A stretch of 64,000 nt of DNA from Candidatus Latescibacterota bacterium (lineage in GTDB: Bacteria > Latescibacterota > UBA2968 > GCA-2709665): assembly GCA_965226795.1 (NCBI GenBank), contig CBDDDZ010000005.1, forward strand, positions 1,568,001 through 1,632,000, given 5' to 3'. Under the pieces are notes generated by a model that searched no databases, was not told the origin of the DNA, and was given only the letters and a program-made list of their open reading frames with translations. Positions 9,914 to 27,580 of this stretch are shown here, one piece after another; the first letter of the stretch is position 1, and each line of letters begins with the position of its first letter. Position numbers and translations under genes: made by a program.

Positions 9914-10211
9914 AGCGTTTCGGGACCCGTGAGATGGAATCTCCCCCACCCTTTAACGTCCCCTATTCCCTTGCCCTTTTTCTTGCATCGCCCAAGAAAA
10001 AGGGCGAAAAAGAAGGGCGCCGCTCAGACGCCGCGGGGCTGCTTTTCCGCGAATCGCCTCAGTGGTGAAAGCGGCTTCAGGTGGCCTACAGAGATCGCAG
10101 GTTTCACCGAGTCGTGATGCTAAACGGATAAGCGCGGAAAAGCCCCCTTCACCTGGACCGGACGCGTTAGAGGCGAGGCGCTTTGCTGGGCGTGGAAAAC
10201 CCCCATGTGCC

Positions 10212-10335
10212 CTGGTGGTCCTGGACCGGAAATATATCACCACTCTTCCGCCTGTCTGCGTGCGTGAGACAGCACGCACAGGCAGGCCGATTCATCCCGC
10301 CTCGAGGCGTAGTGTTCGGTGCCTGCGCTGCTTGC
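10212..10335 (-). mobile_element. Partial inverted copy of the ~170-bp MITE, interrupted by a 36-bp palindromic insertion (10251-10286)
   Basis: Reverse complement aligns with the right part of the copies at 40498-40677 and 62669-62841 once 10251-10286 is removed. Confidence 0.7.
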
Positions 10336-10395
10336 ATTGCGTGTGCTGCGTCTGTCGAAGCAAACTTGTCGAAATATTCCCTTGGCAAGCCAAAC

Positions 10396-10422
10396 TGTGG
10401 ACGCTGAGCTTGTCGAAGCGCC
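10396..10422. repeat. REP-like 27-bp element (copy 2)
   Basis: Identical to 9887-9913. Confidence 0.8.
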
Positions 10423-10492
10423 CACGGTTCGCTACCGTTCGTTCTTCAGTGCCCTTCGCCATCGCACCAGTAACCATTTCAGGTCCTGACAG

Positions 10493-11152
10493 TTACCCCA
10501 TCAAGTCCACTGGATTATCGGCGGGCACCGGCCGCGCGCCAAAGTCGATGAGGTGCGCATTGTCATCGGAAGCCAGCGCGAAAACCGGCTTTCCGTCCGA
10601 AAGCGCCTCTCTGCACAGTGCCTCGGTTTTTCCACCGACTTCGGCGTGGGCGATCAGAATACGGTCCACAAGCGCGGCGACACGTTCGTTACGCTCCACG
10701 GATGTGGCTGCCGTCGGGCGGCGAATACGGTCGTCGAAAAAGGACAGAATCAACAGGCGACCGTCCTCAAGCGGTTCTTTCCAGTGCTTCTGAATCCGCA
10801 TCCTGCCAAGCCCTCGGGCCGGACAGACAACGACACGCGCTGAACCCCGAAATAGAAGATCCAGAAATTCCCTTTCCATCGGGGACTGTAATCCCCCCAC
10901 AACCGTCACGCCGGTATCCCGCAGCGCCCGCGCGAGATCGAACGTCTTCAGGATCACGTCGCCAGGACAACGTATTGAACAGAAGAAACCGATCAACCGT
11001 CCCTCAAGTATCCCTGGATCCCCCAAAAGCGCGACCGGCGTCTCTCCCCCGGCGCCGGCGCATCGCCTAAACACCGCCGGCATATCCGGCGCGCCTTTAT
11101 CGAAACGTGTGATTTTCAATTGATCAGTTCCGGAGCCATTTAAGGGATTCAT
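10493..11152 (-). CDS. Short DprA/Smf-like (SLOG) protein
   Basis: LLGDPGIL..RLIGFFCSIRCPG, TVVGGLQSPME, ERNERVAALVDRILIAHAEVGGKT resemble the DprA Rossmann core; start uncertain. Confidence 0.75.
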   Translation of the reverse strand: MNPLNGSGTDQLKITRFDKGAPDMPAVFRRCAGAGGETPVALLGDPGILEGRLIGFFCSIRCPGDVILKTFDLARALRDTGVTVVGGLQSPMEREFLDLLFRGSARVVVCPARGLGRMRIQKHWKEPLEDGRLLILSFFDDRIRRPTAATSVERNERVAALVDRILIAHAEVGGKTEALCREALSDGKPVFALASDDNAHLIDFGARPVPADNPVDLMG

Positions 11153-11223
11153 TCTATTCGAGCGCGATGTCGGCTTGACGATTCTCGCCTCGGGCAATGG
11201 GGATCACATAAAATGCCCACTTT

Positions 11224-11448
11224 TCACGCGAACTCATAGAGCGGCACTATTGTTGCCGGCTGGCGGTCCTCCTCCAGCAGGCGTTCAATCCTTCGAACCG
11301 TGTCGAGATTCAGCAGCACATCGCCGCAGAAAGAACAAACCTCAGCCGGAACATGGTCGATTACGATCACCTGGCCATCGCGCCGTACGGTGTGCGTAAT
11401 GTCTCTCGTTTCGTATTCTCCGGGGCATCCGTCGATGCTGCATTTCAT
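11224..11448 (-). CDS. YgiT-type (MqsA-like) zinc finger protein
   Basis: MKCSIDGCPG...VIDHVPAEVCSFCGDVLL. Confidence 0.85.
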   Translation of the reverse strand: MKCSIDGCPGEYETRDITHTVRRDGQVIVIDHVPAEVCSFCGDVLLNLDTVRRIERLLEEDRQPATIVPLYEFA

Positions 11449-11738
11449 ACGTACAGTGCTTCCTGTTCGATGCGTTGAATGAACGGAGTTCGGAGGTTCT
11501 TACTCAGTCGGCGGATATCCACCTTACATCCAAGGGCTTGCTCTATGTAAATGTGAAGCCCGGCCAGATCGTCGAACCTCGGTTCTTTCAGCTCTGCCAC
11601 GAGGTCGACGTCACTATCTGCCTGTTGCATCCCGGAAGCATAGGGCCCATTTAGTCCGATCCGCCGGACGCCGAATCGACGCTCTAACTCAGGTTTGCTG
11701 TGGGCAAGAAACCTGAGAATGTCTTGCCTCGATTTCAT
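11445..11738 (-). CDS. Minimal nucleotidyltransferase (MNT) domain protein
   Basis: LERRFGVRRIGLNGPYASG..QADSDVDLV, KVDI, ends EALYV; the GS motif is degenerate (GP). Confidence 0.8.
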   Translation of the reverse strand: MKSRQDILRFLAHSKPELERRFGVRRIGLNGPYASGMQQADSDVDLVAELKEPRFDDLAGLHIYIEQALGCKVDIRRLSKNLRTPFIQRIEQEALYV

Positions 11739-11844
11739 TGTCGCTTCTCAAATTGTGGGTGGGCGCGTTCTGAATGGATTGGCGTTTGAAGAGAAAGAAG
11801 CAATTCTCTTGCCACAAGATCACCCGAATGGTTGAATTCAAATA

Positions 11845-14800
11845 TCACGTCCAAGGGCCTATGCCTTCAGTGATCTTGCGATACAGGAAATTCTGATCGA
11901 ACTCTTTCTCACGTTCCTTGCAGGCGCGTTTCAGGTCATCTCTGTTAGGGCGGATATTGGCCATCTTCAATTTAAAGAAACCGCCTTTTTCCGAAACGGC
12001 ATCGATTTCTTGTCGAATCCACGTCCAAATTCGCCGATCTGCTGAGCGTAGAAACAAAACCCACGCAGCGTACGCAGCAGCCGGATCCGTAGCGTCGAGG
12101 TAGACTTTCCACCAATGGCGAGCACAAGCCTCGATCCACCTTGAACGAGCTGACCTACGTTCGAGCCCCGCATTGGTGGTCTTTAGTTCGCCGTCAGGCC
12201 AAGCCTCGACAATAGGCAGTGGATTTTCCGCGCGGAAACCATCCAAGACCGTTGCACGCGCCTGCCTCCAAGCATACGGTGACGACCGGTCTTTCTGGAT
12301 GACCTCGTTGAGCCATTTTGTCTTGCCATTATCAGTTGCGGCAATCGCGATATTGAATAACGCAAGGTCGTCGGTGCGGTCGTACATTAGTTCTGCAACC
12401 TCATCTCTTAGTTTATTCACCTCAGGTGAATCCGGGACTCGGAAGACCATATGGACAAGGTCATCGACACCGGCAGCGCCTATGTAACTCGTTCTCAGGG
12501 TTTCACTCAGGACGCCCCACAACCGTACGCCTCGAGCGGGATCGTGTATCAGAAGGGCCTCGCAGCGCGTCAGAAATGCTCCCTCAGCCCGATGCACGCG
12601 GTTTTCGAATCCGCTGTTGGTTCGGAGTAACCATCAAGCCAGCGGTCGACATAATCCGATGCAAGTTCGATAACGGGCTCGAAATCCATATAATCAAGTA
12701 TTGCTTGAAAGAGTGTAACTCCGTTCCGTCGCGCTTCTTCTATTCGAGTAGCGGCAGTTTCGATTGCACGTCGATGCGCCTGTACGTACGCTTCTTGATC
12801 CAACGCGAGTTGCATAGCCTCGACTTCGTTGTCGCTCCGTCGGAGTTTCACTGAATACGAAAATGGCAGGAAGTCGACTCGAGTAACGTCGATAGACAAA
12901 TCCGATCCTGGATCAAGATCCCGTACTTCAACGCCGGTTAATGCCGCATCAAAGATGGCTGCCGCAGTCCGGACACCATGGGTATCGGCTTTGCGTCGTC
13001 GCGCAGCCTCAAGCAATCGCCACGGCGCTAATCTGGGTGCCAACTCTTCGAAAGAAACGGACGAGGAAACGTTGATCAGAGAATCAGTTCCATAGTGATT
13101 GACGTAGATGTGTCGGTTGGGATTCCACGACCAACCGTCCTTCAGGAGTTGGCAACCGAATCTATACGAGTCCGCCTGATTCAGTATAATGAAAGCGAGC
13201 TTCGCATAATCATCATCGTGATGCATTGCAAACATTTGAATCCACGACCACGCATAATCGTCGAGTGCGGCGGGTCGGACCGCCAGGAGTTTGAGCAGAT
13301 CGCGCTGCTGCTTTTGTGGGGCTGGGTCGTACCGTTTGACAAGCGCGGATACGTCGTCGGCCGTCAACGGCTTTAAAACGTGAGAAAAGTCCAATAGGAT
13401 GTCCTTTAGGTCGGCTTGAATCAAAGTTTCAATCTGCTTCTGGCCAGGCAGATTACGAATCTCCATCAACAAAAGCCGACTTGCGGCGTGAAATTCATTA
13501 ACTTCGTCAACATCGCGTCCCTTACGGCGAAGCGCATTTGCCGCGGTAGCTTCAGCGTCACCCGAAAGAAGAAAATGAGCCTTCGTCGGAAACGCGCTCC
13601 AGTATCGGATATCTATTGGGCATGCTTCAAGGATTTGCAGTTTGCGTCGGACCAGAGCCGCAAGCAGATCCGGTGCAAATCGAGCAAGCGCGGGCAAAAG
13701 TTGGTCAAAGTTAAGGTCATCTTTGGTCCTCCCTCGGGATCGGTCCAATTTCTCAACGTCAATGGTCCCCGCCAAGCCACGAAGTTCCGATACGAAGTCG
13801 TCAGATGGCACAAAGGTGGGATCGAGCCACAGCTCCCCTATTCTCTTGACCCTTGATTGGACCGCCAATCCACTATCCTGAAGAACGACATGAGCGTGTC
13901 TTCGTTCCAGCGGAAACATGCTTCGGCGTGGATTTGACAAATAATCTCGCTTGTAGTCGAAGGCGCGACCGATGTCTGGATCAGACGTGCTGCTACTCTG
14001 TCGTCCTGCTCGTAGCCGGTCAGCCAAAGCAGCAGCGCAGCGACTCGTTTCGGTAAATGCGGATGGATCCCATTTTCAGGATCGCGTCGCCGCACTCTGT
14101 CTGATAAACCACGCAACTCCTTAGCAGTTTCTTCGGGATCGGCTTCGTTAAACAGACAGAGCCATTTCAACGCATCCCAGCATCCACTATGATCTCCGGC
14201 GGCAAGGGCAGTGGCCGCTGCCTCAAGTGTCGGCATCCCTTTGCACAGTGAAAAGCCTTCAAGTATCGAAGGCACTGTCGATTTAACGAGACCTGGGTAA
14301 CGATCGACGAGGTTAAGTGGGACGCCGTCAACTGAAATTGGACCAGCGGAGTCGGTGCCGATCAGTTTCGCGAGTGCATCTGCCCTCCATTTTCTTTGCT
14401 CATCGCTCCGATTTCGTCGGGTATCAATGTCGCGGTAAACGGTTCCCATCCAGCGTCGTGTACGCTCAACAATTACTTTAAGGGCAGCATCGTCGGTCCT
14501 CGGAATTACACGCAGTGCTTTCACGGCCCAATGACGGGCCGACTCGTGAACATCGGTGTCCGAGTATTCAACAGCATCAAGCAGGGCTCCCGTGAGATTC
14601 GGCGCAAGGTCAACGACTTCCTGCCGATGCGCGTCGGTAACATTACTGTGCTTGTAACCACGCCGTTAGTAGAACTCCGGTTGCTGGCGTTGTCCCGCGG
14701 CCCTGTTCAATCAGGATTGACACTCCCGCACGAAGAATCTCCGCAGTATGATCGAATCCCGCGATCGGATCAAGCCATCGTGCCAATTCAACGTCGAGGG

Positions 14801-16484
14801 CTTCGAAGTCAATTGAGGATTGCTGATCAAGATGTTGCAGAAGGGTAACGCCAAGCGCATGTGCAACCACCGGCGGCGTAAGTTTGAGGTCGCCCGCGGG
14901 CGTCCGCATTGCAAACCGTCCATCGATGATATCACTCAGGCGTGCATACACTTCGAGTGCAGAAAGATCGGGTCGGTCGACTGACTCTCCAAGCGAATTC
15001 ATCGAATAGTGTCGAATGCCGTCTCGATAGCGCTGTGCAACGCTTTTCGACCAAGATAGCCACTCGTCTTCACTAAACGACCTTTCAGACCGTACGCCAA
15101 GTCTGTCACGGCCATATTCCCACAGCAGTCGGTGCAACGTTATTTGTCCAGCCTCGCCCAACCGTTGTCTGAATCGCACAACCAGTTCAAAAAGGCGGGG
15201 CGTGCGTGCCATTTCAAGCACATCCCGATGCAGGTCGTCACGTGCAAGTTCCTCGAATGCGAGCATCTGGTCGAGTTCACCACCAGATTCCGCATCGTAG
15301 CTGTTTATTTTAATTGGTACGGCCGGACAAATGAGGCCCTTCAGCTTAGACAGCCTATTTTCGAAATGGTGCCGTCGCGTGCTGACAATAACACGTATTC
15401 TGCCAGCAAAAGGCTCGGATTGCAGAACTTTCAGCAAATTCAACCATAAAACTGATGGCTGTTGATTCAAGCCATCGAACAAAATGGTAAATGCAGGACC
15501 TTCATGCTCTGGACGTTTAAGGAGACGGTCGAGGCGACGGTGCCAATGATTAGGGCCGCGTTCGTGTGTTAACGCATAGAGACGCTCAGCCAGCAAACGC
15601 CTTAGATCGGTATCGGATAACCGCAGATTGCCTACAACTGCCGACGATGGAATTGTCAATATGACAGATTGCTTGATCTTAGTTTCTAACAGCCAGTCCA
15701 ACGTCGCCCAGGTCTTGCCAACGCCTTCGAGACCCATCACGACCGCAGGGGCGTCATGCCGTGCGGGTCCATGCCACCAGTGGTTCAGCGAGTCGTGTAC
15801 ATTCTCGCGCCTGACCTTCTTTGTTGTGGCTCCTCCCGCGACGTTCTGTCCGAACACCGCAACGGACCGTCTCGGGCAGTTCCAGATTTCGTCTAGTATT
15901 TCGTGGGATTTTTGTCGCAACGATGCGAATCCAAGACACCAGGATTGGAGGTTGCTTTTCAATCGTTCAATGGCGTCATCAGATGCAGACTGCAGGTCAC
16001 GAGCAGCGTCAGCAGCGGAGGCGGAAAGGAACTCGCCAACCACCTCAGGAGAAAACGCGCACAGTGCAGCAAGCGGCGTCATGCCAAAGTCAGTCCAATC
16101 GATGATCAAAACGGGAACGCCATTCTTGCCACCATGCTGATCAAACGATTGAACGATCTTCTCGTTTACAGTACACGTCGCGCACAGAAACCAGCCTTCC
16201 AATGCCTCATCGCGTGCCAGGGCCTGGTCGACTTCGCCAAGTAGTTCGCGTTCGCTCAAGCGCGTCTTATTACCGTACCTTTTGCATTCCAGGCGAAACC
16301 GCCTTCCCTGTTGTCCCGCAGGTCCGGCATCAGCGCCGTGCTGAAAGCCGGAACTGGCGACTGCTATTGGCACGTCGAGCAGGCGCCCGATCAAAGCGGC
16401 TACTAGCTTCTCGAATCTGGACGAGTCCTTCTCGTTCCGAAGCTCATGTTTAAGTTTGTCTAATGCTTCGGAAACCGACAACAT
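11845..16484 (-). pseudogene. Large (~1550 aa) REase + STAND/NACHT-like NTPase (Avs-like), split by three single-base frameshifts
   Basis: N-terminal FEKLVAALI...GADAG...LECKRY PD-(D/E)xK motif, Walker A GLEGVGKT, Walker B ILFDGLNQ, RTPRLF; four ORFs join via shifts near 14645, 13983 and 12608. Confidence 0.75.
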
Positions 16485-16704
16485 TACGATGCCCAACGTG
16501 TAAATATCTCGTGAGCCAATCTCCCCACCGAGTTAAACGTTGTATATTGGGTGGAGAGGAGAGCGTGGGTTGCGGTCAAGAATCGATGTTGTAGAGAATT
16601 GCAGAGAGCGGTCTCTGGTTGTGGAAGTCCCGTACGGGATGTCTACAACGCCGAGGCCTGATCCCGATGTTCAGAAGTGCGCGAACATTGCCATTTTCGA
16701 ATAC

Positions 16705-17691
16705 CTATACTCCGACACCTCGTAATTCGTTTCCGAGGATGAGGTTTTCTGGGGCGGGAACCCAATTATCTTCAGTGGGAACAAGTAGTTGAGCCCTAAG
16801 TTGCCGCTTGTACCGTAGGAGTCCATCTGCCCTCCCCATATTTCGCAAATGTCTGGCCCTTGCAGAGTTCAAATGGATTGAGTAGTCGCCGTCAACATAA
16901 AGTAGTCCCGTGTCGTACGATCGATGATGTAGAGTGCAAAGGGCCAAGCCATTGCTGAGTGCATCGAGGCCTTTTGGATGAGCATGAGGAACAATGTGGG
17001 CAGCATCCACAAGATCCAATTGAATCCCGCACATTGCACACGTGTGAGCATATCCATCCAACACCATTTGCCTGAACTGAGCGCTTCGAGGATATGCAAT
17101 ACGGGTTATAGTGACTCTTTGTCGGTTTACCACAACTCGTCTGTAAAGGGGCTGTCCGAGCGGGGTTTTACAATGAACCTCGAACAACTCTCGGAGCTCT
17201 TCGTCGTCGGCTTGATGAAGCACCGATGAGTTTTCAACATACAAACCGATGAGGTCGGGCCGGAAGTTGATCACGTTTTGCCTGTCGGTATCGATATACG
17301 TAGAGAATCCCTTTGTCATAGCCGTACGCATCGATGATAAACGCGTATAAATGGAAAACCGTTGGGCTCGCGGGTTACGTTCCAGGAATCTATCTGGATC
17401 CCACGCACTAAACCCCTTCACATCTGCGGAAAATCCTAAGACCAATACTGTGTCGCCGGTTTGCTTGTCGTTGATTAATTTCGTAGGCAGATGGCCTGGG
17501 CACTGGATTCGGTATTCATCTGGATCAGTGCGTTTAGCAAAGTGGACGTTACCAATGAATACCGAAAGATATCGTCCTTTATAATAGAATCGGTACGGGT
17601 TATCTCCACCGGCGAAGTAGACAGCATGCGTGTGCAGGCGGAAGGCGTCGAATAACGCATGAAATAGGTCTGTCTTGCCGAGTAGAGTCAT
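16705..17691 (-). CDS. HNH endonuclease with N-terminal accessory domain (resembles methylase-associated X1)
   Basis: C-terminal CAMCG...DAAHIVP...NGLALCTLHHRSYDTG; N-terminal EYRIQ...LGF....FSAWD. Confidence 0.85.
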   Translation of the reverse strand: MTLLGKTDLFHALFDAFRLHTHAVYFAGGDNPYRFYYKGRYLSVFIGNVHFAKRTDPDEYRIQCPGHLPTKLINDKQTGDTVLVLGFSADVKGFSAWDPDRFLERNPRAQRFSIYTRLSSMRTAMTKGFSTYIDTDRQNVINFRPDLIGLYVENSSVLHQADDEELRELFEVHCKTPLGQPLYRRVVVNRQRVTITRIAYPRSAQFRQMVLDGYAHTCAMCGIQLDLVDAAHIVPHAHPKGLDALSNGLALCTLHHRSYDTGLLYVDGDYSIHLNSARARHLRNMGRADGLLRYKRQLRAQLLVPTEDNWVPAPENLILGNELRGVGV

Positions 17692-17710
17692 TTCGGATAA
17701 GCCTCGTTGA

Positions 17711-20700
17711 TCAAGCAGACGAAATCTTTTCGACAATTCGAGAATCGATCGAGTATGTCGACGATATCCATTCGTCAATTTCGCGCAAACGACGATCGGC
17801 GTACAGCTCAGTGAGGCTTGATGGCATGAATCGTTCCTTTATCGAAGTAGGTATATTCTTCTCACCGGCATCCCGGTTTATACCGCGCACGAGTGAAACG
17901 AATGAGAACAACTCTTTAAGATCAACCCAACTTGCACCAATTCCTGAAAGGAACACGAAGTCGGCCCTTCTCGTTAGCGACGATAGACGTTGGTAGTTGA
18001 AATTGCCGATGTATTTGCCGGCGTTCTTCTTGAAGACAAGTGCAGAATATCTATAATTGTTCAGCACCTCTCCGATGATTGCCAATCGATGCAAATGATC
18101 CTTTGGGATCGAAGTGACCGGTGCAACGAGATCCTCAAGTAACCAATTTGTGACGTGGAATCCATCACCCCTCGTTAGCCAATACCAGAAACCCGCGTCG
18201 CCCCCTGTGATCGCGAGAGCCGCGAAGGCCTCCTCTTTCGAACCCAACGTCACCCAGCCGGATTGCGACGGAACATGAACACTTCGGCCATCGGGGTGCA
18301 ATACTGGTGGCGGCTCAATATACGTGGAGATGAAATTGCGCGCGGTTGGCGAGAATCCCAACTTGAAGGATTCACCACGTAGACCGTGTCCGGAAGTTAA
18401 AACTGAAGTAGAAAACTGATTGTGCATTGCTAATAATTTCGCTCCAAAACGGTTCGTTAGGCGGGGAATGCCGAAAGTTTCGTTCGGCATCACATCATCG
18501 ACTTTGTTGTAGGATATATTGTCCAACAGATAATCACGATAGGCTGCGCGCCACCTGTATAGCCGGGTAGCAAACGAACCGATTTTTCGAGCGGTGGTAG
18601 TTAGCCAGATTGTGCATCTCTGGCTAACTCCAGAAAACAGTGCGGCCGGTATGTTATCGAACGAAGAAAACCAGTGAGTCCCGGTGTTAGCCAAAAGTTC
18701 ACGTAGACCTGAAAATTCAAAGCTAAATGTCGTTGAAAGAGGAACAATTAACCCACGGCGTCCGCACCGGCTTGTTATGCGGTGTGATTGTACGACCACG
18801 TAACCATATATATCGGGGAATCTTAAGCTCGTGGTAGACCGTACTCTATAACCAACCGACTTTCGGTTTACGTAGGGAGGATTTCCGACAAGCACGTCAA
18901 ATCCGCCCTGTCGCATGATGCCGTAGAATTCGACAAACCAATGGAATGGCTGGTGACTGATACGCCATTGCTCATAGGAAGCCGTGTCGCTTTCTTGAAC
19001 GCCGTACTCGCTTGCCAAATATCGATCCAATTGTTGACGCAGATCATCTAATCGTCTTCGCAATTCTAACTTCGCATTGACGAAAGCACCGGCGTCCATG
19101 TTCAAGCCGATCTGCATCGTGTGGAATATGCGAAAAGCCCGGTTTGCTAATTCGGTGCGTTCTTCGATGTCGGGAAGAGATTGGACCTTGAACAAATCAC
19201 CCGTTACTGCCAGTCTCACATCGTCGAGAGACGTAAAGCCAACCAGTGTGTTGCCGGCGCGTATGTTGAAATCGATGTCAGGTAGTGGCTCAATCTGTTC
19301 GTAGCTTTCCAGTTGCGCAACGAGTTTCAAAAAGAGGCGCAATTTACAGATCTCGACGGCTTCTTCCATGATGTCAACGCCGTAGAGATTGTTGATAATG
19401 ATGGACTTCAGTATGAAGTAGCGTTCGCTGGGGTGGGACTCGACCTGTTCCAGTATCTTTCGAAAGTCGCTCATTTTCTCGGGGCGGTGTTTACGCTTAG
19501 AGCGCTTCAGATCGTCCAGTAGCCCCCGCATAACCTCAAGGCAGGCAATGTAGACGGGCTCCAGGATGTTGAGCGCCGAGAACAGGAACGCGCCGGAGCC
19601 GCAGGTAGGATCCAGTATCGACACTCCGGTAATAGCCTTCCAGAAGGCGCGGATCAGTTCAGGGCCCTCGGTACCGGCGATGACGTCCTGAGCAAACTTC
19701 TCGACGTCGAGGTTGTACGTTATCAGGTCGTTGATTTCGGTGACCTCTCCTGAGGCGAGCTTGACGTAGACCTCCTCGTAGTGCCGACGGCGGGCTACGT
19801 GCTCCCGCCAGGTTTCCGTTGGCAGGGCATAGTCGCCTGTCGCGGGTTCGTTCCAGATGCCGCGTTTCGAGACGTCGTTGAGTCCTGCTGCAATCTCCGC
19901 TGGTAGTCCGCGCTCTTCCACGAGGGCTTCGTTCTTGTGAATATCGTACGTGATCCCGTGACGGACGGCCTCGTAGAAATACCGATCCGGATCGTCCTGT
20001 AACAGCCGCCATACCCCACCGTCGGGCTTGAATGCGATGGAACAGGCCTTTTTCGCCCTGTCGAAAAGGAACGGGATAACGGTATTGCGGCTGATGTATC
20101 CGGTGATATCCTCTTTGGTGTAGTAGGCACCCATCTGCTTCTGGTTGATGTATTTCTCGAAGATGTAACCGAGCACGTCGGGGTTGATTTCGTTGTCCTT
20201 GCGCAGCGTCCGGTCATCCAGGTGCCACGTATAGGCGTCGAAGAAGTCAAAGATTCTCTCGAACGCTTCATCGGGGATTTGGATATCCGGATTGTCCTGC
20301 TCCAGATCGTGCACGTCAAACAGGCCGCCGTTAAGAAATGGCACCTTACCGAGCAACGCTGCCAACTCCGGGGGGCGATTCTCCTCCGGTTGCCCAAGAC
20401 CGTCATGGAACAACCTCAATAAAAACAGCCGGTAGAAACTGTTGAATCGCCCGTTTCCATATTGCTGCCGCACCCTTTGGAGCCGGTCCCGGAGGTATTC
20501 GGTGTTGTTGTCGAGGAACCCGCGTTTTTGAATGAAGTAGATGAACATCATTCGATTCAACATCAGCGAAGCATACCACTCACGGTCAGCAACCGTCTCA
20601 ATGCCTTCGATAAACCTCAAGAAATCCTGATGTTCCTTCTTGAATCGGTCGTAGAACCGTCTTGTGACCTTTTCTACGTCGAAGGCCGCGCGAACACGGC

Positions 20701-21160
20701 CGGATACGTCGACGATGGTAAGGTCATCTTCTTCGTCCAGTGTAAAGGCGAGATTCTCCAGCTTTTGGATCAGTCGCTCCCCTGTATCCTCCTTGCGGAA
20801 GGATTCCGACCGCAGGCGGTCGGCCTGCCCGAGTTCCCGTTTTACCCATTGCCAGGATTGCTCGGTTCGGTCGTGGGTGGCGTAAACGATGATGTGTTCA
20901 CGGACTTCCTTCGCGACGGCCTTTTCGATTTTCGTGCGGGTGGAATGGTCGGGATACGTCGTCTCGGAGTCGGCGACGAACTGGTAGGCAACCATGCCTC
21001 GTTTGTGCGCGATGGCTTCGAGGGCGACCGACCGCTCACCTACTACAATGAAGGTATCAGCGCCTCCGTGGTCCCAGCCCAGTTCTTCGATGAAGAGCGT
21101 GCGCAGGTCGAAATTTTGCAGAAGCGATTTGACTCTGTTTCGATCTAAAATTGAAGGCAC
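17711..21160 (-). CDS. Large Eco57I/Type IIG-like adenine DNA methyltransferase
   Basis: VPFLNGGLF, LGYIFE, GAYYT, ILDPTCGSGAFL (motif I), LYGVDI, GFDVLVGNPPY (motif IV); C-terminal putative TRD. Confidence 0.92.
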   Translation of the reverse strand: MPSILDRNRVKSLLQNFDLRTLFIEELGWDHGGADTFIVVGERSVALEAIAHKRGMVAYQFVADSETTYPDHSTRTKIEKAVAKEVREHIIVYATHDRTEQSWQWVKRELGQADRLRSESFRKEDTGERLIQKLENLAFTLDEEDDLTIVDVSGRVRAAFDVEKVTRRFYDRFKKEHQDFLRFIEGIETVADREWYASLMLNRMMFIYFIQKRGFLDNNTEYLRDRLQRVRQQYGNGRFNSFYRLFLLRLFHDGLGQPEENRPPELAALLGKVPFLNGGLFDVHDLEQDNPDIQIPDEAFERIFDFFDAYTWHLDDRTLRKDNEINPDVLGYIFEKYINQKQMGAYYTKEDITGYISRNTVIPFLFDRAKKACSIAFKPDGGVWRLLQDDPDRYFYEAVRHGITYDIHKNEALVEERGLPAEIAAGLNDVSKRGIWNEPATGDYALPTETWREHVARRRHYEEVYVKLASGEVTEINDLITYNLDVEKFAQDVIAGTEGPELIRAFWKAITGVSILDPTCGSGAFLFSALNILEPVYIACLEVMRGLLDDLKRSKRKHRPEKMSDFRKILEQVESHPSERYFILKSIIINNLYGVDIMEEAVEICKLRLFLKLVAQLESYEQIEPLPDIDFNIRAGNTLVGFTSLDDVRLAVTGDLFKVQSLPDIEERTELANRAFRIFHTMQIGLNMDAGAFVNAKLELRRRLDDLRQQLDRYLASEYGVQESDTASYEQWRISHQPFHWFVEFYGIMRQGGFDVLVGNPPYVNRKSVGYRVRSTTSLRFPDIYGYVVVQSHRITSRCGRRGLIVPLSTTFSFEFSGLRELLANTGTHWFSSFDNIPAALFSGVSQRCTIWLTTTARKIGSFATRLYRWRAAYRDYLLDNISYNKVDDVMPNETFGIPRLTNRFGAKLLAMHNQFSTSVLTSGHGLRGESFKLGFSPTARNFISTYIEPPPVLHPDGRSVHVPSQSGWVTLGSKEEAFAALAITGGDAGFWYWLTRGDGFHVTNWLLEDLVAPVTSIPKDHLHRLAIIGEVLNNYRYSALVFKKNAGKYIGNFNYQRLSSLTRRADFVFLSGIGASWVDLKELFSFVSLVRGINRDAGEKNIPTSIKERFMPSSLTELYADRRLREIDEWISSTYSIDSRIVEKISSA

Positions 21161-21179
21161 TCGGAAGTCTCCTGAGGCA

Positions 21180-21644
21180 TTATGCCCGAACGAGATCGAT
21201 TAGCGAAACAGCGTCGATTTCATCGAATGGTGCGAAGTCGGTCTGGTTCTGCGTTACCAGCTTTCGGATGCCATGGGTTGCCATTGTGGCAACGATATTG
21301 GCGTCATGCAACCGTTTGCCGTGTAGGCCATGTTTCAATGCAAGTTGTCGCAGTCTACGAGCGACGTCCTGGGTTTCGTCAAAGAGTTGCAGGTGACGCC
21401 GAAGCTCATTCACGTTCCCAACCGCGTCGCGTACGTTCAGACCAAGTCCGTTCGCGTCGAGGGGACGCGATGCGACAACCATGTATTCCCTTAGAATTTG
21501 CCCACTTCCGGCAAGGCGAAGACCGCGCCTACGGGACTCGGCCAGTAGCCTTATTGCTTCACGGTGTTGGGGCCGCGATTCGTCCGTCGCGGTCAAGAGC
21601 ACGTTGGTGTCCAGAAACTGAATATTACCGGCCATCATCGCCAT
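21180..21644 (-). CDS. PIN-domain (VapC) toxin
   Basis: FLDTNVLL, QILREY, LHDANIVATM, LVTQNQTDF. Confidence 0.9.
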   Translation of the reverse strand: MAMMAGNIQFLDTNVLLTATDESRPQHREAIRLLAESRRRGLRLAGSGQILREYMVVASRPLDANGLGLNVRDAVGNVNELRRHLQLFDETQDVARRLRQLALKHGLHGKRLHDANIVATMATHGIRKLVTQNQTDFAPFDEIDAVSLIDLVRA

Positions 21645-21897
21645 AGATCTCATCCCGTTTCCACGACGTCGTGTTTCCAGTCTTGACTGTCACCAGTTCG
21701 AGCATTCGGGCATCCGCGCCTGTCGTCACTGTCCTGTCCAACGCATCAAGACGGGATTCATCAATAGACCTGGGACGAAAAATGAAGCCGTCAGGCGCTT
21801 TCTCAATCTCGAGATCGTCTCCGGGACCGACCCCCAGCATGTTTAGCACCCGTTTTGGTAGGGTGACCTGACGTTCTGAGCTTATCTTGACAATCAT
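21625..21897 (-). CDS. AbrB/MazE-family antitoxin
   Basis: MIVKISSERQVTLPKRVLNMLGVGPGDDLEI; overlaps the PIN gene start. Confidence 0.85.
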   Translation of the reverse strand: MIVKISSERQVTLPKRVLNMLGVGPGDDLEIEKAPDGFIFRPRSIDESRLDALDRTVTTGADARMLELVTVKTGNTTSWKRDEIYGDDGR

Positions 21898-22041
21898 GGG
21901 ATCCTCCTTTTAACCAGATGGTTTTTGACTTTGTTTCTGTCCAGTTTCGTTGGCATTCGGAACGTCCGGATTATAGAGTTGGTGCTGGCTTTAATCGGGC
22001 AATGATGTGGTCAGAGCGGGATTGGACCGAAACGCTTTTTT

Positions 22042-22440
22042 CTACAATTGACGGGCGTCGGGCATGGCGGCCATCTTTTGATCCAGCGTCAGGACTTGCA
22101 TGTCAGCGCGTGAATAGTCGTCGGCGATAAGCCGGTCAAACAGGCCCGCGCCGCCGGAAGCCTCAAGGGATTCGATAACCGAGCGCCCGTTCAGAGGGGA
22201 GACCAGGCCGCTGCGCAGCGCGTCGAGTAATGAGGTTCGTGCATCGGCTTTTGATACGCCATAGTGGTGCTGTACCGCAACGTAGGTCTCACCAACGACC
22301 TGGTTTGAAACGAAGATCTCGTGGCCATGCTCGTTGACCAGCGCACCAAGTTTGCTTACGCAATACGCGAAGTCTTCTTGCGGGTCTCTGGTGAGTAACC
22401 GCACGAGAACTGACGTGTCAATCCCGAAGCGAAGGGTCAT
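22042..22440 (-). CDS. PIN-domain (VapC) toxin
   Basis: GIDTSVLVRLL, VVGET, GLFDRLI, LTLDQK. Confidence 0.88.
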   Translation of the reverse strand: MTLRFGIDTSVLVRLLTRDPQEDFAYCVSKLGALVNEHGHEIFVSNQVVGETYVAVQHHYGVSKADARTSLLDALRSGLVSPLNGRSVIESLEASGGAGLFDRLIADDYSRADMQVLTLDQKMAAMPDARQL

Positions 22441-22660
22441 ACGATTGCTCCCGGAAGTCCTGGAGATCAAACGTCCCACGTCCGCGCCGGATCTTTTCGC
22501 GCAACGTACCGAGACGGGAGTGATCGATGCGTCTGGGCCTCAGGGCGAACCCGTCGGGCCCTTCTACGATTTCGAGTTGGTCGCCCGGGCCGACCCCAAG
22601 AGCGTCCAGCACCCGCGCAGGAAAGGTCACCTGGCGTTTTGAAGTTATTTTGACAATCAT
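22418..22660 (-). CDS. AbrB/MazE-family antitoxin
   Basis: MIVKITSKRQVTFPARVLDALGVGPGDQLEI; overlaps the PIN gene start. Confidence 0.88.
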   Translation of the reverse strand: MIVKITSKRQVTFPARVLDALGVGPGDQLEIVEGPDGFALRPRRIDHSRLGTLREKIRRGRGTFDLQDFREQSYDPSLRD

Positions 22661-22705
22661 GGCATACCTCCTTACTGATAATGATAATAAAGTAAGGTGA
22701 AAGCG

Positions 22706-25700
22706 TCAAGTCTGGCGTCTGATCAATCCCATAGAGCAGATGATTCGCGGTTCATCAGGTTCATCCTCACCGTGGATGATACAAAGCCGCCCATCCCCCC
22801 GCATTTCGATGACCAGTCCGACCAAGTCGTCATCCGAGATTCCACTGCGCAATTGGCGGTTCAGCGTATCCACCGCGGATTGGCGCAGCGGATATCGGTA
22901 TATCTCGCCCACTGCCCTGCGAAGTTGTTCTGTATCGAAGAGTGTGCCCTCGACCCTCTCGGCGTGATTCTTAAGCCGTTCATAGGTGCGGAAGTGCGCA
23001 CCCGAGGGTCGTCCCAGTTGGCCCCCGACCTGATTCTCCTCCTTCGCTATGCGCTCAGCGGCTTTTCGTACAAGATCGTGATGGGTTTCGTGCCGGGGAA
23101 GCGCCGGTGTATTCGGTTTGCATTCGGCGGCCCGGAGAATTTCGAACTGGCTTTCGGTGACGCTGCCCCCTTTCCGATCCATCCACGCGAGGGCATCATT
23201 GTCCTGTGTTGTGCGCATGTATACGAGTACACCGTCCTGCCGGGCCGGTGTATGTGAGCCGGCTTTGGAGGAATGGACGACGTCCGGCATCTGCTCCACC
23301 TTCTTCTCCAGCGACGGATCGGCAGTCGTGGCGTTTCTCCAGATCTGGTAGGCATACGACGCAAGATCCACCTCGGAATCGTCATCGCCATCGAGGACTC
23401 CGGTCTGTTCGTTATATAGATCGACCACCGCAAGAGTGTCCTCGTCCTCAAAAAAGGCTTCGTCGGTTCCGACCACTTCGGCGTTCTCTTCGAGGCGCTG
23501 CCGTACCCGGGCTCGCAGCCGAATCAGACGTTCGATGCCCTCCGCGGGAAGGAAGGAATAGCAGAGGATGTTCGGCGCCGATTGGCCGATTCGGTCCACG
23601 CGGCCGGCTCTCTGGATCAGCCGGATGATTGCCCAGGGAAGGTCGTAATTGACGACAATGGCGCAATCCTGAAGGTTCTGTCCCTCGCTCAACACATCCG
23701 TGGCAACCAGCACCCGGAGTTCCTCCTCCGGCGCGATCTGCCCGCCTTTGTCGTTGCTTTTGGGACTGAACCGCCAGGCCAAGCGAGTGGGATCCGCGGA
23801 GTCGCCCGTAACGCCCGACAGCCGTTCGACGCCTCTACCCATTAACCGACGTTCCAGGTATTGCACGGTGTCGGCGAACTGCGTGAACACCAGAACCTTC
23901 TCACCTGGATGTTTATCCACAAGGATCTTCTGCAGAGCGGCAAGCTTGGCATCCTGAGACGGAATCCATTCACCGAATCCCTCCAGCATTTCACGTAACG
24001 TTCTCGCATCCGTCACCAGGGCTTGCCGAAGTGTCTCGTCGAAATGACGCGGGCTGAGCCAGCGAAATCGCCTGCTGTATCGTTCGCGGTAGGCATCGTA
24101 GACTTGTGCGGCGTGCCGCCGGAAGTCTTCTTCGGTTCTCAGAACGTGTTGTGTATGAACTTCGCCCCTGCCGTCCTCTTCTTCTTCAAAAATGTCGCCG
24201 GCAGCGCCGTCCGGATCCGCGTCGAAAGATTGAGGGTCCAGAAGCCCGGCGTCGGTTGTGCCGACCGGCAGATCCAGACCGTTTTCGATGGCGTGGATAA
24301 AGATGAAGTTCCTCAGCACATGCCGCTCGACCGACAGCAGGAACGAATGACCGCTGCTTTCAAGGCGTTTGAGCAGGTTCGTCCGGCAGAATCCCATCAG
24401 GCGCCTGCCTGCCCGTGAAAGGTCTTGCAGGATTTGGCCTTCGTTCGGCGATGGCGGCGGATCGGCCAAGGAGGTCAAGTAGTTTGCCAGACCGTAGCGC
24501 GGGAGTTCCAACCCGTTGATTGCGGACACGACGTTTTCGTCAAAGAGCCGCGCGTACTGGTTGTCGATATCGAAGCCGACGGTCCTGGGAACGCGGACCG
24601 GGAAATAGGATCGCGTTCCGTCTTCGAATGTCAGATATCTTCGCCCGTTAGCTGGATCCAACGTGGCGTAGTTTTCTTGAATGAAACTGCGGGTTCGACG
24701 TACGAGGTACAGGCGCATCAATTCACGCCAGTCGTCGGTATATTCCGAATGGTCGAATGCCGCAAGTGACCGGACAGAAGCCTGGTGGCGGCGAATGAAT
24801 TCGGTCTCACCGATCTCTCGCAACAGGCGTTCAGGTCGGATGCCCAGGTCTTCATTCTCATGCACAAACAATCGGATCTGGTTTGAGAGATCCTGGTACG
24901 TCTTGTTATATGGCGTAGCCGAAAGCAGAATGCACTTGCTTTCGTTTTCCCGGATGTATTCCTGAATTGCACGGTACCGCTTTCCCTCACGGTTTCTCAG
25001 ATTGTGACTCTCGTCAATCACAACCAGCCTGTACCGGCGCATGTCAGGGAGTTCCCGGGGCGCACGGCTGATCGAAAGCACGCGCGCACGTAACCGATAC
25101 TCGTCACGATAGTCCTCCCACATCGGCACCAGGTTCTTGGGGCAGATAATCAGCGTTTCAACCCCATAATCGTCTTCAAACACCCGCGCTAAAGCCGTGG
25201 CCATCAGCGTTTTACCGAGCCCCACGACGTCGCCGATTATGACGCCGCCACGCTTGTTCAGGTGATGCGCGGCAATCTTGACGGCGGCCGTCTGGAAATC
25301 GAGCAGTTTGTTGCCGAAATCTTTCGGAATGCGGAATTCCGTCAAACCCACCCGGGCTTCCTGCGATAGATGGTATGCCATCTTCACATAAATGTGGTAC
25401 GGGGGGATCAACCGCACCCCCGCCCAACTCTCATCGATGATCTCCGCGAGTTCCTCAGAGATATCGACGCACCAGCGGTCGCACCAGCGATCTTCGAACC
25501 ATTGGGCGAGCTTCCCACATGCATCGTGCTCAAGAACGTCCACGTTGAGTTCGCCCTGGCCGGAAAGACCGGCTTGCGTAAGATTGCTGCTGCCCAGGTA
25601 CCCGACCGTTGGATTGATGGGATCCTGCCGGAAAAGCATGTAGAGCTTGGCATGGAGCGGATGTCTGAGGAAGAGTTTGACAACGACCTTTTTGGACTTG

Positions 25701-26068
25701 ATCTGCCTTGACAACCTGCGCAGCCCGGCCTCGTCCGCGTTGCTCGGCGCACCCGTGGCCAATTGGTCTCTGAATTCCTCGGCCAGACGTTTCTTCAGCC
25801 GAATGGCGGTCTGATTATCGAGTTTCCCATCCTGGGCGGTCAGACTCCTGGCGATTCGAAACTCCTCGTGCGGCAAGCGATGTATGCCCACCAGCAGGCG
25901 GCAACAGTGTCCCTCCCCACCCTTCCATTTTTCAACATATTCATCGATCGCCCGCCACCCGCGCAGGTTGAAATAACCCACGCAGAAATCCGCGCGGTCG
26001 GAAACCGCCAGGGTCTCCGCCAAAGCCGGCAAGAGACGCTGTTCGATATTGTCGAAAATACGTGGCAT
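22706..26068 (-). CDS. PLD (HKD) nuclease domain fused to SNF2-family helicase
   Basis: LHAKLY...GSSNLT..GL..QGELN; DVVGLGKT, VIDESHN, SATP, VFTQFADT, TDVLSEGQNLQ, QRAGRVDRIG. Confidence 0.92.
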   Translation of the reverse strand: MPRIFDNIEQRLLPALAETLAVSDRADFCVGYFNLRGWRAIDEYVEKWKGGEGHCCRLLVGIHRLPHEEFRIARSLTAQDGKLDNQTAIRLKKRLAEEFRDQLATGAPSNADEAGLRRLSRQIKSKKVVVKLFLRHPLHAKLYMLFRQDPINPTVGYLGSSNLTQAGLSGQGELNVDVLEHDACGKLAQWFEDRWCDRWCVDISEELAEIIDESWAGVRLIPPYHIYVKMAYHLSQEARVGLTEFRIPKDFGNKLLDFQTAAVKIAAHHLNKRGGVIIGDVVGLGKTLMATALARVFEDDYGVETLIICPKNLVPMWEDYRDEYRLRARVLSISRAPRELPDMRRYRLVVIDESHNLRNREGKRYRAIQEYIRENESKCILLSATPYNKTYQDLSNQIRLFVHENEDLGIRPERLLREIGETEFIRRHQASVRSLAAFDHSEYTDDWRELMRLYLVRRTRSFIQENYATLDPANGRRYLTFEDGTRSYFPVRVPRTVGFDIDNQYARLFDENVVSAINGLELPRYGLANYLTSLADPPPSPNEGQILQDLSRAGRRLMGFCRTNLLKRLESSGHSFLLSVERHVLRNFIFIHAIENGLDLPVGTTDAGLLDPQSFDADPDGAAGDIFEEEEDGRGEVHTQHVLRTEEDFRRHAAQVYDAYRERYSRRFRWLSPRHFDETLRQALVTDARTLREMLEGFGEWIPSQDAKLAALQKILVDKHPGEKVLVFTQFADTVQYLERRLMGRGVERLSGVTGDSADPTRLAWRFSPKSNDKGGQIAPEEELRVLVATDVLSEGQNLQDCAIVVNYDLPWAIIRLIQRAGRVDRIGQSAPNILCYSFLPAEGIERLIRLRARVRQRLEENAEVVGTDEAFFEDEDTLAVVDLYNEQTGVLDGDDDSEVDLASYAYQIWRNATTADPSLEKKVEQMPDVVHSSKAGSHTPARQDGVLVYMRTTQDNDALAWMDRKGGSVTESQFEILRAAECKPNTPALPRHETHHDLVRKAAERIAKEENQVGGQLGRPSGAHFRTYERLKNHAERVEGTLFDTEQLRRAVGEIYRYPLRQSAVDTLNRQLRSGISDDDLVGLVIEMRGDGRLCIIHGEDEPDEPRIICSMGLIRRQT

Positions 26069-26132
26069 CAGGCCGTCCTTCTATGGTCTCAGGTCAGCAC
26101 CGTCTTTAGATTGCAAGAATTCGACAATACCA

Positions 26133-26161
26133 GATATAGGCAAGAATACGGCGTATGTCAA
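26133..26161 (-). promoter_or_regulatory. Putative sigma70 promoter of the helicase/methylase cluster
   Basis: Minus strand TTGACA (26161-26156), 17 nt, TATATC (26138-26133), about 65 nt upstream of the ATG. Confidence 0.55.
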
Positions 26162-26164
26162 CCG

Positions 26165-27580
26165 GGGGGTGTCAAGAATATTGTGTAAGTGGCGTTGGTG
26201 GATCAATGAAAAGGGACGCGATCGTCGAACATGATGGCGAAGCGATTCAGTGCGGCTTTCCAGTTGATTACGGGTTTGGTCCAGCGTTTGCTGATGTTGC
26301 GAAGGGCCAGAAACAGGAGCTTGATGGCGGCTTCATCGGAAGGGAACGCGCCCCGATTTTTAGTGATCTTGCGCAACGACCGGTTCATGGACTCAATGGC
26401 ATTGGTGGTGTAGATGACTTTGCGGATGTCTTTGGGATAGGCGAAGAACGGGATGATATGCTCCCAGTGCTTGCGCCACGATTTTGAAATGGAGGGATAG
26501 TGTTCATCCCAGGTCGCTTCGAAGGCGCTCAGGTTCATCTCTGCTTCTTCGACGGTGGCGGCCTGCCTGCGCCGTGCTGTACTCGGCAGGCAGGCCTGGT
26601 AAATCGGCTTAAGATCGGCGGCGACGTTTTTCCGGTCCTTCCAGGTCACAAAGCGTAGCGCGTTGCGGACCAGATGCACGATGCATAAAGTTGTACCTGG
26701 GTCTTGGGGTATACCGTCTCAATGGCCTTAGGGAAGCCTTCCAGGCCATCGACGCAGACGATAAAGATGTCCTTAAGGCCCCGGTTCTGCAACTGCGTAA
26801 GCACCGACAGCCAAAATTTGGCACCCTCGCTTTTTGAGACCCACAGCCCGATGAGCTCCTTCTCACCGTGCAGATTAAGGCCTAAGGCCAGATAGATGGC
26901 CTTCTTCTGCACGGTGCCTTCGTCGCGGATTTTGACGAAGAGCGCATCCAGGTAAACGATGGGATAGACCTCGTCCAAAGGCCGATTCTGCCAGGCTTTG
27001 ACCTCGTCGATAACCCCATCGGTGATGTTGGAGATCAGCTGTGGTGAGACGTTGACGCCATACATCTCTTCCAAATGCCCCTGGATCTCCCGATCGGTCA
27101 TGCCACGGGCATATAACGAGATGACTTTGTCGTCAAAACCCTTCAGACGCCGTTGATGTTTGGGCACGATGTGCGGCTCAAAATCGCCGTTGCGGTCCCG
27201 CCTGCCTGCAGCAGGCAGGCGGCACAGCAAGGGTCACTTCATTCTGGTCGGTCTTGACCTTTTTGCACGTCTTGCCATTTCTTGAATTGCCGCTGCCTCG
27301 ACCTGCTGGATCGCCTTTCTCATACCCCAGGTGATCGGCCATCTCATCCTCGAGCATTCGCTCCAACACCCGTTTTGTCAGCTGCTTGAGGATCCCGTTT
27401 TCACCCAGAAGATCTTCGGCGCGTTTGCCGTCATCGACCAGGTCGTCAACCAACTCGTCCAGCAGCGCCTCACGGTCTTTTTCCTTGTTGGCCATATCTT
27501 CTCCTCTCGGAATGATCGTTTGCGTTACTATACGCATTCCTGAAGGTTATGACCTCTTACACAAACTAATTTACACTCTC
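26165..27580 (-). mobile_element. IS256-family insertion sequence (1416 bp)
   Basis: Imperfect terminal IRs (gggggtgtcaagaatattgtgtaag / cttacacaaactaatttacactctc); 8-bp TSD gtcaaccg at 26157-26164 and 27581-27588. Confidence 0.93.
26203..27495 (-). pseudogene. IS256 transposase, disrupted
   Basis: [40 protein letters not shown]; frameshifts at 27201-27219 (19-bp insertion) and near 26688; in-frame 33-bp insertion at 26562-26594. Confidence 0.92.

Follow-up and report, generated by a model that had tools for sequence, protein, structure and literature searches.

A Family of 19- to 36-bp Hairpin Insertions Without Target Duplication in a Latescibacterota Genome and Other Bacterial Phyla

Introduction

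REPs, including the GTAG- and CGTC-tagged families and intragenic members, are treated by Di Nocera et al. 2013 (PMC3733652) and Bertels & Rainey 2011 (PMC3116915). According to the accessible parts of the former, the CGTC-type REPs have, like the hairpins described here, no known transposase. The window analyzed in this work is a stretch of 64,000 nucleotides from Candidatus Latescibacterota bacterium (assembly GCA_965226795.1, contig CBDDDZ010000005.1, positions 1,568,001 to 1,632,000). It contains three short palindromes whose family resembles REPs and REPINs: imperfect palindromes in the range of 20–40 bp with copy numbers from tens to hundreds, distributed patchily among species, some of them intragenic and translated. 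However, the unpaired GTAG or CGTC end tag of REPs, as given in part of PMC3733652, is absent here, and the exact R^Y junctions without duplication documented below have no counterpart in the accessible parts of PMC3733652 and PMC3116915. The stem has two tiers with an internal bulge, and the copies are mostly single units instead of inverted pairs. REP systems are mostly extragenic, often form inverted pairs and have their REPs on either side of the RAYT gene; here, the RAYT-like gene goes with a different hairpin, transposase genes account for at least 8 of the 34 sites, three copies are in frame in host genes, and the termini are identical over ~12 phyla.

The small dispersed repeats (SDRs) of the Nostocaceae, reportedly described by Elhai et al. 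in 2008, are said to be 21–27 nt long, to share a conserved fold, to occur nested both in small transposons and in one another, and to have been judged recently mobile. RNA-mediated spread has reportedly been suggested for them, and we know of no enzyme that moves them. The accessible text of PMC5861425 reports SDRs as confined to the Nostocaceae. The present family, with its many phyla and its 19-bp minimal member, is set apart from them by description and taxon. Among the Rickettsia palindromic elements (RPEs), RPE-1 measures ~100–150 bp. RPEs are palindromic repeats that interrupt genes in frame, the protein products probably remaining functional (PMC3733652, in part). In-frame palindromic inserts in host genes are common to both families, but those described here are 19–36 bp long, also frameshift their hosts and cross phyla, whereas RPEs are lineage-restricted.

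IS200/IS605 elements carry two different subterminal hairpins, recognize a fixed 4–5-nt left target and need TnpA. They and their gene-less derivatives share with the present hairpins the dependence on a hairpin, the lack of target duplication and the possibility of precise excision; here, however, the two-hairpin layout does not apply, the left flank varies beyond its purine at −1, and Y1_Tnp is missing in some high-copy genomes. MITEs combine terminal inverted repeats with a target duplication, while only the inverted termini are found here. Integron attC sites consist of R''/R' boxes (RYYYAAC ... GTTRRRY) with a crossover at G|TT; these boxes are absent from the hairpins, whose junctions are R^Y beside CCTG/CAGG. 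For targets or derivatives of IS110, a DEDD transposase would be expected with abundant copies, but it gave no hit in five genomes with many copies. Background on the IS200/IS605 group is available in part from PMC6006769. A preliminary description of the window knew of no formal account of such elements; none was found in the literature for this sequence, although the kind (REP, RPE, SDR) is known.

Inserts in the Window

The pattern CCTGYCTG-N0-30-CAGRCAGG matches the window exactly three times, at 10251–10286, 26562–26594 and 27201–27219 (no strand assigned), and not once in 100 dinucleotide-preserving shuffles of it. The insert at 27201–27219 is the minimal member of the family, 19 bp with an 8-bp stem and a 3-nt loop. 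It frameshifts the transposase gene of an IS256-family (Transposase_mut) pseudogene at 26203–27537 on the minus strand. Positions 81|82 of the Pfam Transposase_mut profile meet across the insert; six intact homologues read AVPRDRN without interruption, whereas the window gives TLAVP, the frameshift and then RDRNG. The 33-bp insert at 26562–26594 adds 11 residues in frame to the same gene, at a point where the homologues are contiguous (LKPIY|KAAT). The 33-bp insert recurs in a fragment of this IS at C2:375782 (C2 to C5 denote contigs of the source genome, G000). For this gene, the empty state is that of protein homologues, in place of DNA-level alleles, of which 0/30 were found in relatives. 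The pseudogene also shows an unrelated small frameshift near 26680–26700.

The third insert, 36 bp at 10251–10286, lies within a host repeat that is short and dispersed (...ttccg^ccgattcatcc...). The genome also holds 30 empty copies of this repeat, with the sequence ...tcatccg|ccgattcatcc..., and in some further copies the identical position is occupied by a 33-bp variant. A second host repeat is represented in the window by an empty copy at 9960–10066 (C5:1577960-1578066; no strand assigned), with its junction near 10019|10020; over 107 bp, it is 100% identical to the flanks of the filled copy at C3:567094. The intact IS256 homologues and the empty repeat copies confirm the three clean insertions that had been proposed from the letters of the window alone.

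Copies, Junctions and Structure

Genome-wide, G000 has 106 matches to the pattern, so the three inserts are not alone. These correspond to 101 non-nested copies at ~34 independent sites, with 34 distinct hairpin sequences when reverse complements are merged; roughly 15 degenerate copies come in addition. One host repeat holds 46 of the 101 copies, and 17 of the 34 sites have paralogous empty copies. Repeated DNA contains 11 of the 34 sites for 8.9% of the bases (p = 1e-4) and transposase genes at least eight; the remaining sites are intergenic or in frame within host genes. Copies of an IS1380-family element contain 0, 1, 2 or 4 inserts, distributed over four fixed sites.

The lack of target duplication noted in the preliminary description holds for every filled/empty pair, among the paralogues of G000 as well as in a gammaproteobacterial MAG (G041). 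For example, the filled copy at C4:924876 and the empty one at C4:796141-796260 are 100% identical over 120 bp. In the same pairs, the junctions are exact, free of small deletions, tails or truncations.

All three inserts of the window sit between G and C, as originally described. At the 34 independent sites of G000, this G^C is a preference and not a rule: position −1 is G 26 times, A six times, and C and T once each, and position +1 is C 28 times and T six times. In other words, a purine precedes the element in 32/34 cases and a pyrimidine follows it in 34/34. R^Y is also found at 53 of 70 contexts in G041, against a background of ~25%, and a +1 pyrimidine at 75 of 84 cross-phylum 19-mers. 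Apart from the −1 purine, the left flank in G000 is variable, and positions +2 to +4 show no conservation. The base preferences of the left flank and of the complemented right flank are unequal (chi-square p = 4.8e-5).

The termini CCTGYCTG/CAGRCAGG are fully paired. This outer 8-bp stem is common to all 34 sequences of G000, with a 2-nt bulge in most of them. The inner stems vary among these sequences, yet pairing is retained; other genomes have other inner stems.

Secondary structure of the target does not exceed that of random G^C sites (P = 0.22). An origin of the hairpin interior by copying from the flank, or its pairing with the flank, was not significant (P = 0.19 and 0.40). In the cross-phylum set, 7/84 insertions fall at the center of a flanking palindrome (p = 9e-8; three of them from one host repeat), an enrichment not seen in G000 (P = 0.10). 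Insertion of the IS608 type, on the lagging strand, would predict a replication-strand bias; none was seen in G000 (counts 6/5/8/2, low power) or in the G041 sample, whose weak GC skew allows no judgment.

Gain and Loss

The presence of the insert varies between paralogues, between orthologues and between genomes. One host repeat is represented by 36 filled and 19 empty copies, always with a single site and one orientation. On its tree, 17 state changes are counted, and supported branches require at least seven of them; the mean with shuffled labels is ~16, and a single filled clade is rejected (AU p = 2e-6). Gain or loss has thus recurred at one site, in one orientation. Gene conversion between copies could be part of this pattern. 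The filled and empty copies, however, share variant bases 4–5 bp from the junction, which counts against such conversion.

At a methyltransferase locus, the contigs of two RNA-library runs and two probable DNA runs are all filled, with no joint across the element that would point to an empty allele or to its removal from RNA; as contigs lose rare variants, this check of one locus speaks for presence only and not for ongoing activity. In an E2/E3 spacer, the 19-mer is found in G000 alone among 14 aligned loci, but the divergence of the spacer precludes calling a clean empty site.

Distribution

The hairpin family is not confined to one lineage. Forty relatives carry 0–293 copies each (0–2 for the reversed-pattern control), and copy number is patchy even among close relatives. 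The exact 19-mer occurs at no fewer than 125 loci in roughly 56 assemblies, under ~12 phylum labels, and identical termini are found in many phyla. Such ends could serve as a tracer of horizontal DNA flow. Five distant genomes have 681, 223, 181, 53 and 46 copies. The richest is G041 (681), in which 105 of 107 sampled copies are 19-mers and 400 kb yield 57 flank clusters; the genome with 53 copies is G045. Cultured carriers include Perlabentimonas gracilis M08_MB (45 copies) and Robertkochia flava (18 copies). In viral contigs, the 19-mer was met in only eight stretches.

Mechanism

With a probability of roughly 0.55, we consider these elements to be gene-less hairpins of 19–36 bp that insert cleanly at R^Y without target duplication and whose movement, in single-stranded hairpin form, depends on a putative structure-recognizing enzyme acting in trans. 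The moving form would be a folded single strand, as suggested by the conserved fold, the strand-asymmetric flank preference and the 19-bp size, judged too short for a double-stranded circle. This enzyme would carry out the cutting and joining, and passage between genomes may be aided by riding in insertion sequences and small repeats. Since no larger element with these termini was found in G000, movement in trans is favored; together with the polymorphic inserts, this agrees with the minimal mobile hairpin family first proposed. If the signal within a 19-base hairpin does suffice for its movement, the hairpin defines a lower size limit for transposable elements and points to an activity that cuts and joins hairpin DNA, beyond the catalogued transposases. 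As cultured carriers exist, the mechanism is accessible to experiment.

A broader reading is offered more tentatively, at clearly less than even odds. The hairpins would be one undescribed family of 19–36 nt with fixed (CCTG)2/(CAGG)2 ends, an active pan-bacterial mobile element among the smallest known. Its mechanism would lie outside the known transposase classes and leave no target duplication; it would cross phyla inside insertion sequences, attain in some genomes a density of one copy per 5 kb, and add short peptide loops to proteins.

It is rather unlikely that host machinery suffices, with general enzymes of repair or replication joining abundant hairpin oligonucleotides into nicks or blunt breaks, without a dedicated transposase, and patchiness reflecting the history of invasion via carrier insertion sequences. 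The identical 19-mers in ~12 phyla are consistent with this, as is the failure of every candidate enzyme family to follow copy number, and frequent nesting in insertion sequences and small repeats would ferry copies between genomes. Nevertheless, it explains neither the orientation-specific, repeated use of one site, nor the conserved 8-bp termini and bulge, nor the source of free hairpin DNA, and the small deletions that such repair usually produces are missing.

REP-like elements with a tyrosine transposase of the HUH/Y1 type as their mover (RAYT or IS200/IS605 TnpA) would likewise involve a hairpin with unpaired bases, movement in trans and no target duplication. This mobilization, suggested in the preliminary description, is not supported by the comparison of profile hits in 41 genomes, where Y1_Tnp does not follow copy number. 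There are three weak hits in G000, and within the genus hits occur in 5/6 genomes with at least 66 copies vs. 3/9 low-copy genomes. On the other hand, no hit was obtained in G041, G045 or G007 (139 copies), and G024 (133 copies) has broken fragments only, while the 32 hits in G017 and 75 in G038 go with three copies and one copy. The sole free RAYT-like gene of G000 has its own REP, a different hairpin that occurs seven times in its flanks. Moreover, no fixed tetranucleotide stands left of the element, and the GTAG/CGTC tag is absent. The phyletic pattern and the RAYT's own REP speak against Y1_Tnp as the mobilizer, and the explanation as a whole is improbable.

The other candidate enzymes fare no better. 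The IS110 DEDD transposase (PF01548), promising in five genomes, failed across 41: it gave no hit in G000, G008, G013, G015 and G024 (66–248 copies), whereas G034 has 57 hits and no copy. TnpB shows no pattern with copy number. The mover is likely an enzyme outside all the transposase families tested.

About as improbable as HUH/Y1 mobilization is an origin from a larger autonomous element, such as a small nuclease gene within the same termini, of which the hairpins would be footprints or joined ends. The conserved 8-bp termini do resemble transposon ends. However, among 268 terminus pairs of G000 spaced 58–6000 bp apart, none is a genuine element with an empty site, and solo termini are near a rough, composition-based chance estimate. 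A recurring candidate of 114–344 bp turned out to be a different outer hairpin family. GIY-YIG (PF01541) gave no hit in G000, where the absence of even a UvrC-type hit is odd, and nearly all sampled copies in G041 are bare 19-mers.

RNA-mediated spread, by transcription, reverse transcription and insertion, would fit the conserved fold and the presence of the element in RNA-library contigs, but it is very unlikely: reverse transcriptase (RVT_1) was not found in G007 and elsewhere does not separate carriers from non-carriers, and the junctions are exact, without tails, truncations or duplications. Finally, the absence of any transposition, a few old insertions having been multiplied by host-repeat duplication and gene conversion, is hardly credible and is contradicted for the family as a whole, since in spite of the single repeat with 46 copies, the 17 sites with paralogous empty copies and the enrichment in repeated DNA, there are the unrelated sites of G000, the flank clusters of G041, inserts in single-copy genes that are missing in orthologues, unrelated phyla carrying the element and the variants within 5 bp of the junction that filled copies have in common with empty ones. 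For the host repeat, this could still explain part of the pattern.

Effects on Host Genes

In metagenome-assembled genomes, the family would account for many genes that seem broken or unusually extended, and its copies mark dead mobile elements. Of its initial portrayal as a hyperparasite that inactivates transposons, the enrichment in repeated DNA and the location of some sites in transposase genes stand. Inactivation is limited, as gene breakage comes only from non-3n copies and other copies are intergenic or lie in host genes. In an IS1380-family copy, an open frame of 469 aa persists despite two in-frame inserts. Neutral survival in dispensable DNA accounts equally well for this distribution.

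Copies of 3n length add 7–12 stop-free residues, which the host proteins tolerate. Stop codons are scarce in the copies, 10 of 264 frames vs. 15.6% in shuffles. Three such copies lie in frame within intact host genes; HsdM and a methyltransferase are proteins given short loops in this way. In the homocysteine S-methyltransferase gene, the insert is 33 bp long and is missing in 9/9 aligned orthologues of the same genus.

Insertions in the Window and Their Hosts

The pattern CCTGYCTG-N0-30-CAGRCAGG matches the window exactly three times, at 10251-10286, 26562-26594 and 27201-27219, the places where a preliminary description had put three small insertions, and not once in 100 dinucleotide-preserving shuffles. 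The last two lie in an IS256-family gene (26203-27537, minus strand) that is split into three open frames. The 19-bp element does interrupt the AVPRDRN motif of the transposase, as had been proposed: in six intact homologues (404-413 residues), the motif is contiguous, and positions 81 and 82 of the Pfam profile Transposase_mut abut across the site. The 33-bp element adds 11 in-frame residues at a point where the same homologues read LKPIY directly followed by KAAT. The 36-bp element sits inside a short dispersed repeat, of which the genome (G000) contains 30 empty copies.

The IS256 copy also has a small frameshift near 26680-26700, unrelated to the hairpins, so it has been disabled several times. 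A JGI metagenome contains a 291-residue protein (P0026) that matches this broken form in both its frameshifted start and its 11 extra residues; hence, the same insertions are present in another public data set. A 1120-residue ORF (22706-26068, minus strand) adjoins the copy.

Size and Anatomy of the Family

Other genomic copies exist: in the G000 assembly (5.41 Mb in five contigs, 58% G+C), of which the window is C5:1568001-1632000, the pattern gives 106 matches, corresponding to 101 non-nested copies, and a relaxed search adds about 15 degenerate ones. Clustering by flanks leaves about 34 independent sites. The lengths are 19, 21, 25, 27, 28, 30, 32, 33, 35, 36, 38 and 46 bp, and the 34 distinct sequences (reverse complements merged) share one plan: the termini form an outer stem of 7-8 bp, usually with a 2-nt bulge (CG/GC) on one side, around an inner hairpin whose sequence varies between variants while its pairing is kept. 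The 19-mer consists of the outer stem and a 3-nt loop. Stops occur in fewer reading frames than expected: 10 of 264, compared with 15.6% in shuffles. One 46-bp variant of the 33-mer (G000, C5:143529-143574) has about 15 unrelated bases in place of the bulge; something inserted into the bulge or replaced it.

Junctions and Target

When the two flanks of each copy were joined and sought in G000, contiguous empty counterparts were found for 17 of the 34 sites, some with flanks 100% identical over 107-120 bp. The absence of a target duplication holds at every filled/empty pair of this genome. Insertion between G and C, on the other hand, is a strong preference and not a rule: at the 34 sites, the base at -1 is G in 26, A in six, C in one and T in one, and that at +1 is C in 28 and T in six, which amounts to a purine^pyrimidine target. 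No unusual structure was found in a test of the G000 targets, and no relation of the element interiors to the flanks.

The commonest host repeat is present in 36 filled and 19 empty copies (one degenerate copy scored as empty was left out), and the orientation of the element is identical in all filled ones. The repeat falls into sub-variants that differ at linked positions less than or equal to 5 bp from the junction on both sides, and each of these includes filled and empty copies. A maximum-likelihood tree built from the flanks requires 17 changes of state, at least seven of these being forced by well-supported branches, and the states cluster no better than shuffled labels (mean of about 16 changes). 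Grouping all filled copies in one clade is rejected (lnL difference 218.8, AU p = 2e-6). Gain or loss of the same 33-mer has therefore occurred many times at this exact site. Gene conversion may contribute to this pattern, with a poor fit to the near-junction variants.

Mobile and Genic Hosts

The family had been described as sitting inside other mobile elements. Enrichment in repeats is indeed clear, both flanks being repeated at 11 of the 34 sites versus 8.9% of G000 (p = 1e-4), but about half of the sites are outside recognisable mobile DNA. The enrichment is equally explained by survival of insertions in dispensable DNA, without any targeting. Transposase genes hold at least eight sites (four IS1380, two IS256, two DUF772). 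An IS1380-family element (PF13701) is present in six copies, which carry zero, one, two or four inserts at four fixed sites (30, 19, 21 and 30 bp); an open frame of 469 residues survives in the copy that has the two in-frame inserts alone, and those carrying the 19-mer are broken.

Five hairpin-bounded inserts of 114-344 bp (G000, C2:255931-256044, C2:560508-560850, C3:548994-549267, C4:725822-726095 and C5:1925408-1925751) lie between the halves of another hairpin (GGGCAGACA..TGTCTGCCC), with one common empty site (C2:640135-640214). They resemble small cassettes in a site bounded by a hairpin.

Three copies with a length divisible by three are in frame within apparently intact host genes of G000: 30 bp in HsdM, 33 bp in a homocysteine S-methyltransferase and 33 bp near the C-terminus of an SBP_bac_5 protein. 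The methyltransferase insert is missing, with clean junctions, in all nine aligned same-genus orthologues, and contigs of both RNA and DNA runs retain it. The HsdM position (within C5:355000-357800) is empty in five of nine orthologues; the other four (L043, L045, L047 and L050) hold another insert there, about 50 bp long, with stem CCCTCTCCC/GGGAGAGGG. This spot in a type I methylase is thus a hotspot of small insertions, and the inserts of the four orthologues represent a second family of small hairpins. Most of the other sites are intergenic; among 14 loci, only that of G000 has a 19-mer in the spacer separating E2 from E3, which has diverged too far for a clean comparison.

Distribution across Phyla

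Among 40 relatives, the pattern count is 0-293 within the genus and at most 133 in the sister family (reversed-pattern control, 0-2), and the dominant inner hairpin differs genome by genome. The exact 19-mer has at least 125 loci in a species-genome collection, versus a rough chance estimate of 2-10. The matches listed (80 loci) come from about 56 assemblies, whose titles name about 12 phyla, including the cultured genera Algoriphagus, Pedobacter, Robertkochia and Perlabentimonas. Whole-family counts reach 681 in a gammaproteobacterial MAG (G041), 223 in a Brocadiaceae MAG, 181 in a Desulfobacteraceae MAG, 53 in a Dehalococcoidia MAG and 46 in a Kapaibacterium MAG (controls, 0-1); five cultured Bacteroidota have 45, 18, 7, 4 and 1 copies.

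A 400-kb sample of G041 contains 107 copies in 57 flank clusters, 98 being the identical 19-mer. The target is purine^pyrimidine in 53 of 70 contexts, and empty counterparts match at 100% over 80 bp and show no duplicated bases. Two stretches (G041, C1:808500-816000 and 899000-904500), beside an IS110-family gene, carry the 19-mer at intervals of 150-250 bp, with 12-13 copies per stretch of 5-7 kb, and look like shredded mobile DNA. A pyrimidine occupies +1 in 75 of the 84 copies examined across phyla. In this set, base preference in the flanks varies with element orientation (p = 4.8e-5), and a perfect flanking palindrome is centred on the insertion in seven, versus 0.43% of control positions.

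Known Elements and Mobilisation

The known elements most alike in behaviour are probably the cyanobacterial SDRs. By the tests that define them, the family belongs neither to REP-RAYT systems nor to MITEs, IS200/IS605 derivatives or attC sites, and association with IS110 fails as well. The hairpin sequence was not found in the papers searched; a paper on sponge-associated Latescibacterota has "palindromic" only within the full name of CRISPR, and no "transposase", "mobile genetic", "insertion sequence" or "MITE". The kind itself is already known, namely RPEs and REP families, among them intragenic REPs and CGTC REPs that lack a transposase (PMC3733652); unusual here are the minimal size, the documented junctions and the cross-phylum reach.

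No larger element with CCTG termini was found in G000, which argues for the movement in trans that the preliminary description had suggested. Its HUH/Y1 mobiliser fared worse: Y1_Tnp does not track copy number, with three weak matches in G000 (one free-standing) and none in G041 or in a 53-copy genome (G045). IS110, present in four of four carriers and absent from one non-carrier, then failed across 41 genomes. TnpB and RVT_1 show no pattern with copy number. GIY-YIG (PF01541) has no match in the whole of G000 at E <= 0.01, including none of the UvrC type; in the control search, 13 of 14 reference genomes gave a match.

As no tested enzyme family accounts for copy number, we can only infer the mechanism. 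The moving form would be a folded single strand recognised by its structure, as suggested by the conserved fold and bulge, by a size judged too small for a double-stranded circle, and by the exact junctions together with the strand asymmetry. A replication-strand orientation bias was not seen in G000 or the G041 sample, at low power.

The free RAYT-like gene of G000 (L003, C2:152696-155917, ORF 1075-1830; 251 aa, HVH motif) was rejected as the mobiliser. Seven copies of a different REP hairpin, its own (stem CGAGGGCA/TGCCCTCG), flank the gene, which is a classic REPtron. A CCTG 33-mer at C5:3051343 sits in the loop of this RAYT's own REP.
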